A stretch of 64,000 nt of DNA from a virus (lineage: Duplodnaviria > Caudoviricetes): IMG/VR virus record IMGVR_UViG_3300027566_000003. One strand, given 5' to 3'. The notes beneath the pieces were generated by a model. The model did not search any database. It was given only the letters and a program-made list of their open reading frames with translations, and was not told the DNA's origin. Of this stretch, positions 20,757 to 21,258 are shown piece by piece (within the stretch, counting starts at the first letter, position 1; every line of letters begins with the position of its first letter). A program made the position numbers and the translations under genes.

Positions 20757-21258
20757 TTATGTATTATCACTTGACCTAAAAATAACTACCATACTAGGAA
20801 ATGGTGCTGAATTTTTAGCATCACCAAACTTTAATCTTCCTTTGATAAATCTTATTTCAGCTTTACCATATATGTATTCATGAAAATATTTTGTATCTGT
20901 TCTAGCAGGTAACAAGCAAACTACCACAGTCTCTATTGGTGTGTGTGTGTGTGTGTGTGTGTGTGTGTGTGTGTGTGTGTGTGTGTGTGTGTGTGTGTGT
21001 GTGTGTGTGGCAAGTTTCATATGCTTTCTTAACCCATTTACCTATCTCTCTTCCGTAAGGTGGATTCATCCAACATACACCAAACCACTCTTGTTTTAAT
21101 CCATCTTGTTCAGGAGTAAAATATTTATCACACTTTGCATTGCTTTCAACCGCACAAACATCTAATTCAAAATCAAATTCTTCACTCATTTTATTAAAGA
21201 AATCTTGTGGAGTTGCCCACATATCAGTTTCGCTACTAAACATTACATCTGTATTCAT
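20757..21258 (-). pseudogene. dam: Phage Dam-family N6-adenine DNA methyltransferase, out of frame across a dinucleotide repeat (probable phase-variable gene)
   Basis: N-half WATPQDFF...FELDVCA...CWMNPPYG...WVKKAYE; C-half VVCLLPARTDT...EIRFIKGRLKFG...APFPSMVVIF in another frame; the junction is the (CA)n tract. Confidence 0.9.
20939..21009. repeat. Perfect (GT)35G / (CA)35 microsatellite
   Basis: Read directly from the sequence, 71 bp. Confidence 0.97.

Follow-up and report, generated by a model that had tools for sequence, protein, structure and literature searches.

Repeat-driven switching of methylase genes is a textbook mechanism in host-adapted bacteria, where it forms the basis of phasevarions. 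Phase-variable restriction-modification (R-M) methyltransferases with intragenic repeats have been reviewed (PMC7383803, PMC11475388), and one that relies on a two-base unit is M.MmyCI of Mycoplasma mycoides subsp. capri, where 12 AG repeats leave the gene OFF and an in-frame variant is ON [(AG)12/10; PMC3498834]. Switching by repeats in phages is only beginning to be recognised, so far for short homopolymers only. Poly-G runs are known in the receptor-binding genes of Campylobacter Fletchervirus phages (Sorensen et al., 2021, Cell Rep 35:109214, cited in PMC12823448), and homopolymer loci, e.g., agt and rIIA, have been described in phages T2 and T4 (Gomez, Barrick and Waters, 2025; 10.1101/2025.10.21.683753), a preprint whose text makes no mention of dinucleotide repeats or methyltransferases. 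As at the locus described below, slippage-prone repeats in these phages yield mixed progeny and are read as bet-hedging, and agt of T2 also encodes a DNA-modification enzyme; as far as the cited sources describe them, however, the Fletchervirus, T2 and T4 loci are short homopolymers only, with no dinucleotide microsatellite and none in a Dam-family methylase.

A poly-G tract in the methylase gene of Bordetella phage BPP-1 has also been cited, being noted but not studied (10.1101/2025.10.21.683753). We verified a G8 run inside this gene (bpm, bbp30), and a search of the literature found no report of an allelic series in otherwise identical genomes for bpm. A published study of a Burkholderia P2-like phage likewise held nothing relevant on methylase frameshifts.

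The locus described here lies in a 64-kb window, the whole stretch of phage DNA that was analysed (64,000 nucleotides), and consists of a PF05869 adenine-methylase gene divided by a (CA)35 tract. In common with BPP-1 bpm it is a phage adenine methylase gene with an intragenic hypermutable tract, but the bpm tract is a homopolymer and its product belongs to PF01555 (N6_N4_Mtase), whereas here the repeat is a dinucleotide and the family is PF05869. The likeness to the bacterial phasevarion methylases lies in a non-triplet repeat inside an adenine-methylase gene, in unit changes that toggle the frame and in OFF alleles that stop just past the tract. Those enzymes, however, are bacterial Type III or Type I mod/hsdM products with a restriction partner, whereas this gene is a phage orphan of PF05869, not Mod or HsdM, with no res, hsdR or other hsd gene nearby; its tract is far longer (35 units) and sits mid-gene, in a loop that is translated when the gene is ON. 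The locus would work like a phasevarion switch but is not a member of the Type III/Type I class. What is new is a dinucleotide microsatellite in place of a homopolymer, its extreme length and an unusually clean natural allelic series, a poly-G run in a phage methylase being already known from bpm. We regard it as probable that the locus is a contingency locus, at which slippage in the (CA)n run switches a phage orphan adenine methylase on and off.

The divided methylase gene

Every gene around the tract is encoded on the minus strand. The N-terminal part of the methylase is a 118-aa ORF (20902..21258, minus strand) that matches PF05869 positions 7-89 with 82.7 bits (E 3e-23). Residues 1-83 make up the Dam N half, in which catalytic motif IV, (D/N)PPY, is present as NPPY; they are followed by a His-Thr run and then by a 13-residue out-of-frame tail that leads to the stop. 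An RBS-like AGAGGA lies upstream of the ATG of this ORF (-6.0 kcal/mol vs anti-SD). The C-terminal half of the methyltransferase (VVVCLLPARTDT...SSDNT; 20757..20927, minus strand) lies in +1 phase relative to the N half, contains no stop or indel, and matches PF05869 positions 88-146 with 21.6 bits (E 2e-4); taken alone this is below the curated threshold of the family (28.1 bits), and the match is exactly colinear with that of the N half. Relatives in which the two halves are in frame score 112 bits (L085) and 115 bits (L218) against the same profile, and N65, P66, P67 and Y68 are invariant across 48 homologues. Judged by sequence, the gene is a predicted minimal phage orphan N6-adenine DNA methyltransferase of PF05869 with a length of ~145-170 aa.

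A small prophage adenine methylase with known specificity is PamA, a Dam-like enzyme from Staphylococcus aureus that methylates GATC (DpnI sensitivity) and whose expression alters host phenotype (PMC12435837). The inactivating PamA substitution P65T falls where the Dam family of the window has NPPY (residues 65-68), and PamA may itself belong to PF05869; no repeat switch has been described for it. GATC is also the target of the Dam enzymes of phages T1, HP1 and VT2. By analogy with PamA and with these phage enzymes, the target of the enzyme encoded here may be GATC. GATC is among the most depleted 4-base palindromes of the 64-kb window (96 observed vs 162 expected from trinucleotide counts, ratio 0.59), a depletion consistent with selection through restriction enzymes directed at GATC, provided that this is the sequence that the Dam enzyme targets. 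The non-specific adenine methylases Hia5 and Hin1523 were considered as analogues and rejected, their DPPY and FxGxG motifs and 90-residue target-recognition region representing a different architecture.

The tract itself is a perfect (CA)35C repeat on the minus strand, or (GT)35G on the plus strand (20939..21009), and is the proposed hypermutable element. Tandem Repeats Finder returned positions 20939-21009 as one array of period 2 with 35.5 copies and 100% matches. It is the sole notable simple repeat of the 64-kb window, a census of which found no other dinucleotide run of at least five units and no G or C homopolymer of at least six, and since the G+C content of the window is 28%, the tract is not attributable to chance. 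From the Cys codon ahead of the repeat (21012-21010) to the GTG-GTA-GTT codons of the VVVC strand there are 71 + 11 = 82 nt (phase +1), and the Dam halves are therefore one base out of register. Gain of one unit (84 nt) or loss of two (78 nt) restores the frame, so that the (CA)35 allele of the window is OFF and one unit short of an ON length, and (CA)n is translated as alternating His-Thr in all three frames. An intragenic repeat with a unit length that is not a multiple of three is a defining feature of contingency loci. The earlier note, made from the DNA letters, had described a perfect 71-bp dinucleotide tract that splits a phage Dam gene and leaves its present allele OFF, with one unit gained or two lost restoring a full methyltransferase that carries a (His-Thr)n insert, and each of these points was borne out by the array, the colinear halves and the frame arithmetic.

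Long dinucleotide runs are difficult for short-read assemblers, and in 26 of 118 IMG/VR loci with (CA)>=20 the tract lies within 150 nt of the locus end, which would suit an assembly or contamination artefact as the source of the tract or of its length. We consider this very improbable. The tract lies mid-contig between colinear halves of one gene, homologous tracts occupy the same codon in five other phage lineages assembled with different pipelines, and both flanks lead into the tract in an independent assembly of run X1, the groundwater run that contains the window. The Logan contigs of this run stop exactly 30 nt into the tract on each side, as expected where a k=31 graph meets a repeat of 31 nt or more. 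This corroborates a long tract without fixing the number of units, and the true count could differ from 35 by one.

The position of the repeat in the protein was modelled on an in-frame 148-aa relative, and not on the broken gene of the window. The AlphaFold2 model (48 homologues) had a pLDDT of 84.5 and placed the His-Thr residues where helix 72-84 ends and in the surface loop 85-93, ahead of strand 94-100. Loop length varies by ~11 residues among homologues and, because of this spread and of the placement in the model, the loop after the NPPY helix is predicted to be insertion-tolerant. The best PDB folds for the model were 6irx and 6irv, cap-specific adenosine N6-methyltransferases (PCIF1/CAPAM), with TM 0.68-0.70 and E 1e-6, and further fold matches were to other adenine methyltransferases; a sequence search of the PDB found no relative. 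The His-Thr loop might also bind metal.

Tract lengths and coding constraint in related phages

IMG/VR and JGI/ENA metagenome contigs were scanned with the N half, resulting in hundreds of PF05869 genes. In the nearest relatives a CA tract follows straight after the same Cys codon and consists of 7, 8, 9, 11 or 14 units. Nearest in sequence are six contigs from several groundwater samples and assemblers (L083, L209-L213) whose N half is 99% identical to that of the window and which carry (CA)14, an OFF length. The (CA)8 allele (L085, L002, L219-L222) is ON, encodes the 148-aa protein P0202 and was found on at least 29 contigs, and the (CA)7 allele (L214-L217; 5 contigs) is OFF and encodes the 88-aa P0203, with a stop immediately past the tract. 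Two further alleles are ON, namely (CA)9 in L208, where no spacer follows the tract, and (CA)11 in L218.

The (CA)7 and (CA)8 alleles occur in genomes that are otherwise the same. Aligned to L219 with (CA)8, the (CA)7 contigs L215, L216 and L217 had no mismatch and only one gap each, of 2 nt, over 3546, 2167 and 1539 nt, respectively; one phage therefore occurs in both ON and OFF forms in different samples and assemblies, this being a sister phage and not the window's own, and the pipelines of the assemblies having differed. Read from the contigs, a one-unit difference in tract length between otherwise identical ON and OFF genomes is the signature expected of a contingency locus. In run X2, which holds a relative like L085, two unitigs share 30 nt at the tract, which would be consistent with (CA)8 and with branching of the graph at this point, the branch itself not being visible.

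The CA tract is kept in relatives down to ~86% amino-acid identity (P0001, P0201), and L084, which is one step further out at 87% identity, has no repeat and a loop of the ordinary kind. The flanking genes of the CA-tract phages are 71-81% identical to those of the window or unrelated, which means that distinct phages have retained the repeat in this gene. A host was sought among 185,579 species genomes; no relative there exceeded 73% identity or carried a CA tract. The earlier note had proposed a search of phage Dam homologues for HTHT inserts at this position, and this was positive, with (CA)7-14 after the same Cys codon; its suggestion of a phase-variable switch gains support from the 7/8/9/11/14/35 series, the identical (CA)7 and (CA)8 contigs, the purifying selection described next and the convergence in the loop.

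Coding constraint downstream of the frameshift was estimated by pairwise Nei-Gojobori counts over 54 codons. Between the window and L083, both OFF, the C half differs by 8 synonymous and 1 non-synonymous changes (dN/dS 0.03), and between the window and L002 by 13 and 2, respectively (dN/dS 0.03). No secondary stop or indel was found in either half of any OFF allele, and the downstream coding sequence of these alleles is thus intact, as expected of a contingency locus. These substitution patterns point to strong purifying selection on the C half, and the low dN/dS together with the lack of lesions indicates that it was translated through nearly all of the divergence between lineages. A low dN/dS would also be compatible with very recent inactivation or with recombinational import of a functional C half. 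Between window positions 20757-21258 and L083 (2950-3550) there were 2 differences in the 237 nt of the N half and 9 in the 162 nt of the C half (Fisher p 0.009), and this jump in divergence suggests recombination with a breakpoint in or close to the (CA)n run.

The intact C half bears directly on the possibility that the repeat is a non-adaptive hot spot in a dispensable accessory gene, with the window allele dead, its tract having grown unchecked to 35 units once selection on the frame was lost, and the polymorphism among relatives amounting to recurrent loss. Both of the longest tracts (14 and 35 units) were found OFF only, and the in-frame alleles reach at most 11 units, as such a history would predict. 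Across 6 contigs from several samples the (CA)14 OFF allele does not vary in length, from which it follows that consensus lengths are not wildly unstable; many phages have no Dam gene, and here a separate C5 methylase is encoded next door. No OFF allele, however, has a secondary lesion in either half, and dN/dS downstream is 0.03. The tract has also stayed at one codon across diverged phages with three different in-frame lengths, its perfect purity fits ongoing slippage and not an old decaying repeat, and poly-G or poly-A tracts arose in the same loop in independent lineages. We therefore judge a dead gene to be unlikely.

The OFF alleles share a further property, since those with 7, 14 and 35 units are all in one phase (phase 1), equal to ON minus one unit. 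In this phase an internal ATG just upstream of the tract (21018..21020) opens an 87-aa ORF (20757-21020, minus strand) that runs through the repeat into the C half; none of the three OFF alleles closes this ORF, and its equivalent was called by JGI in L217. This allows an alternative in which an OFF allele is still expressed, either by a -2 slip of RNA polymerase or the ribosome or as a two-piece enzyme made of the N fragment and a C fragment started at ATG 21020, with the tract tuning dose instead of switching the gene off. A -2 slip re-pairs perfectly and would correct exactly the phase of all OFF alleles. Against this, chance would put three of three alleles in one phase with a probability of 1/8, and a contraction bias in slippage would explain the pattern equally well; the SD-like signal at the internal ATG is weak (-3.1 kcal/mol vs a median of -5.9 for gene starts, with ~30% of random ATGs as good); and we found no evidence that an elongating polymerase or ribosome slips on CA repeats, an event that is to our knowledge rare. 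Residual expression of this kind seems quite improbable.

Under the contingency-locus reading, which we favour, slipped-strand mispairing during replication of the phage DNA would alter the number of units, and with a unit of 2 nt each such change would shift the frame. One tract length in three would yield a complete enzyme whose loop carries (His-Thr)n, the other two would truncate it, and progeny genomes would accordingly be of two kinds, methylase-ON and methylase-OFF. Most probably this would make adenine methylation heterogeneous in the phage DNA and, should the phage lysogenise, in the DNA of its host, whose methylome might then also toggle. A plausible benefit is that methylated genomes would evade enzymes that cut unmethylated sites and unmethylated genomes would evade methyl-dependent enzymes. 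The parts of this scheme differ in strength, the slippage mechanism being well supported by the allelic series. An adaptive role in bet-hedging may follow from it, the tract may switch frequently within one population of the window's phage, and in-frame alleles with ~24 His-Thr residues might be active. The natural series from (CA)7 to (CA)35, together with ON and OFF forms of the same phage, makes the proposed hedging by a phage of its own epigenetic state between opposing host defences directly testable. In annotation, a phage contig whose Dam gene is split at a simple repeat should not be written off as carrying a pseudogene or an assembly error.

Repeats in the same loop of other PF05869 lineages

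Breaks at the same place were found in other lineages of the family. The two halves were in different frames in 15 of the 198 PF05869 loci that have both halves, and 12 of these 15 breaks fall at a simple repeat in the same loop. The repeats at the breaks were poly-G runs of 7-10 in at least six sequence contexts, one A7 and the (CA)14 described above. One group of gut phages has G9 in frame in 7 loci and G10, G8 and G7 out of frame in 5. L023 (G9, ON) and L142 (G10, OFF) are 99.86% identical over 6.2 kb. Frameshifted genes made up 10 of 31 loci with a loop poly-G of at least seven compared to 3 of 167 without (Fisher p 5e-7), a contrast that is indicative only because the loci are phylogenetically non-independent. 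The density of G/C runs of at least seven was ~35-fold greater in the loop than in flanking DNA, again an indicative value given the same non-independence. Many of the loop-tract lineages come from human-gut metagenomes, and in-frame and frameshifted alleles are both present among them.

This pattern raises the possibility that, in small phage Dam methylases, the loop that follows the NPPY helix has been selected as a contingency site and has become one by convergence in many unrelated phages, through (CA)n in those of groundwater and through poly-G or poly-A in those of the gut and elsewhere. We put this forward tentatively, as a generalisation that has nearly as much for it as against it. 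If it is correct, phages would commonly randomise their own methylation state and in this way counter host defence, hedging between restriction that is sensitive to methylation and restriction that depends on it. (CA)35 would then stand at the extreme, switching very fast, and would be the first switch built on a dinucleotide microsatellite to be described in a bacterial virus.

The poly-G run lies ~48 nt past the NPPY codons in L017, L019, L023, L028, L029, L034, L043, L049, L132, L142, L143 and L151. More loci with a loop tract (G7-G10 or A6-A7) are L095, L097, L101, L148, L165, L184 and L198, and poly-A runs are present in L105, L112 and L015. Four contigs of a single isolate assembly (L192, L193, L202, L203; Hydrogeniiclostridium mannosilyticum ASD2818) start or end inside a Dam-family gene, two of them being only 292 and 417 nt in length, and this assembly may have been broken at a repeated or variable prophage methylase. 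Tracts of (CA)>=20 occur in at least 118 IMG/VR loci (L224-L341), many of them in giant-virus bins and including the 26 with a tract close to the locus end; no Dam relative was found among these loci.

The surrounding DNA-modification island

The Dam gene lies in a DNA-modification island (18512-22344) whose order on the minus strand is a DUF5662 gene, a 133-aa ORF, the Dam gene, an HNH-like ORF and a C5 methylase. The DUF5662 gene (21775..22344, minus strand; PF18907, E 1e-34) is upstream of Dam, and the C5-cytosine DNA methyltransferase (18512..19912, minus strand; 466 aa) matches PF00145 with an E of 1.6e-81. The ORF between the two methylase genes (19991..20503, minus strand) is HNH-endonuclease-like, with a weak match to PF13392 (HNH_3; E 7e-4). 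A C5 methylase is also beside the Dam gene in relatives, and the DUF5662 family adjoins methylases in L209-L212. In the (CA)14 phage L209 (1497-4014; Ga0209728_1002025), a Mom-family gene (PF25680) is located ~0.5 kb downstream of Dam.

The gene content of the window is that of a large groundwater phage and includes a Thg1-like enzyme, a sliding clamp, an anti-repressor, HNH endonucleases and two IS200/IS605-type transposases. The transposase genes (12575-13837 and 32107-33558, both minus strand) match phrog_506 with E values of 4e-53 and 1e-59, respectively, and the region of the first gave the sole megablast match of the window to isolate phages, at 71% identity to transposases of the Clostridioides difficile phage phiCD211 group. 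A 1373-aa ORF (607-4728, minus strand) combines PhoH/ATPase-like, polynucleotide kinase/phosphatase and T4 Rnl1-type RNA ligase parts (phrog_8238, E 1e-202), the composition of a single-chain RNA repair enzyme.
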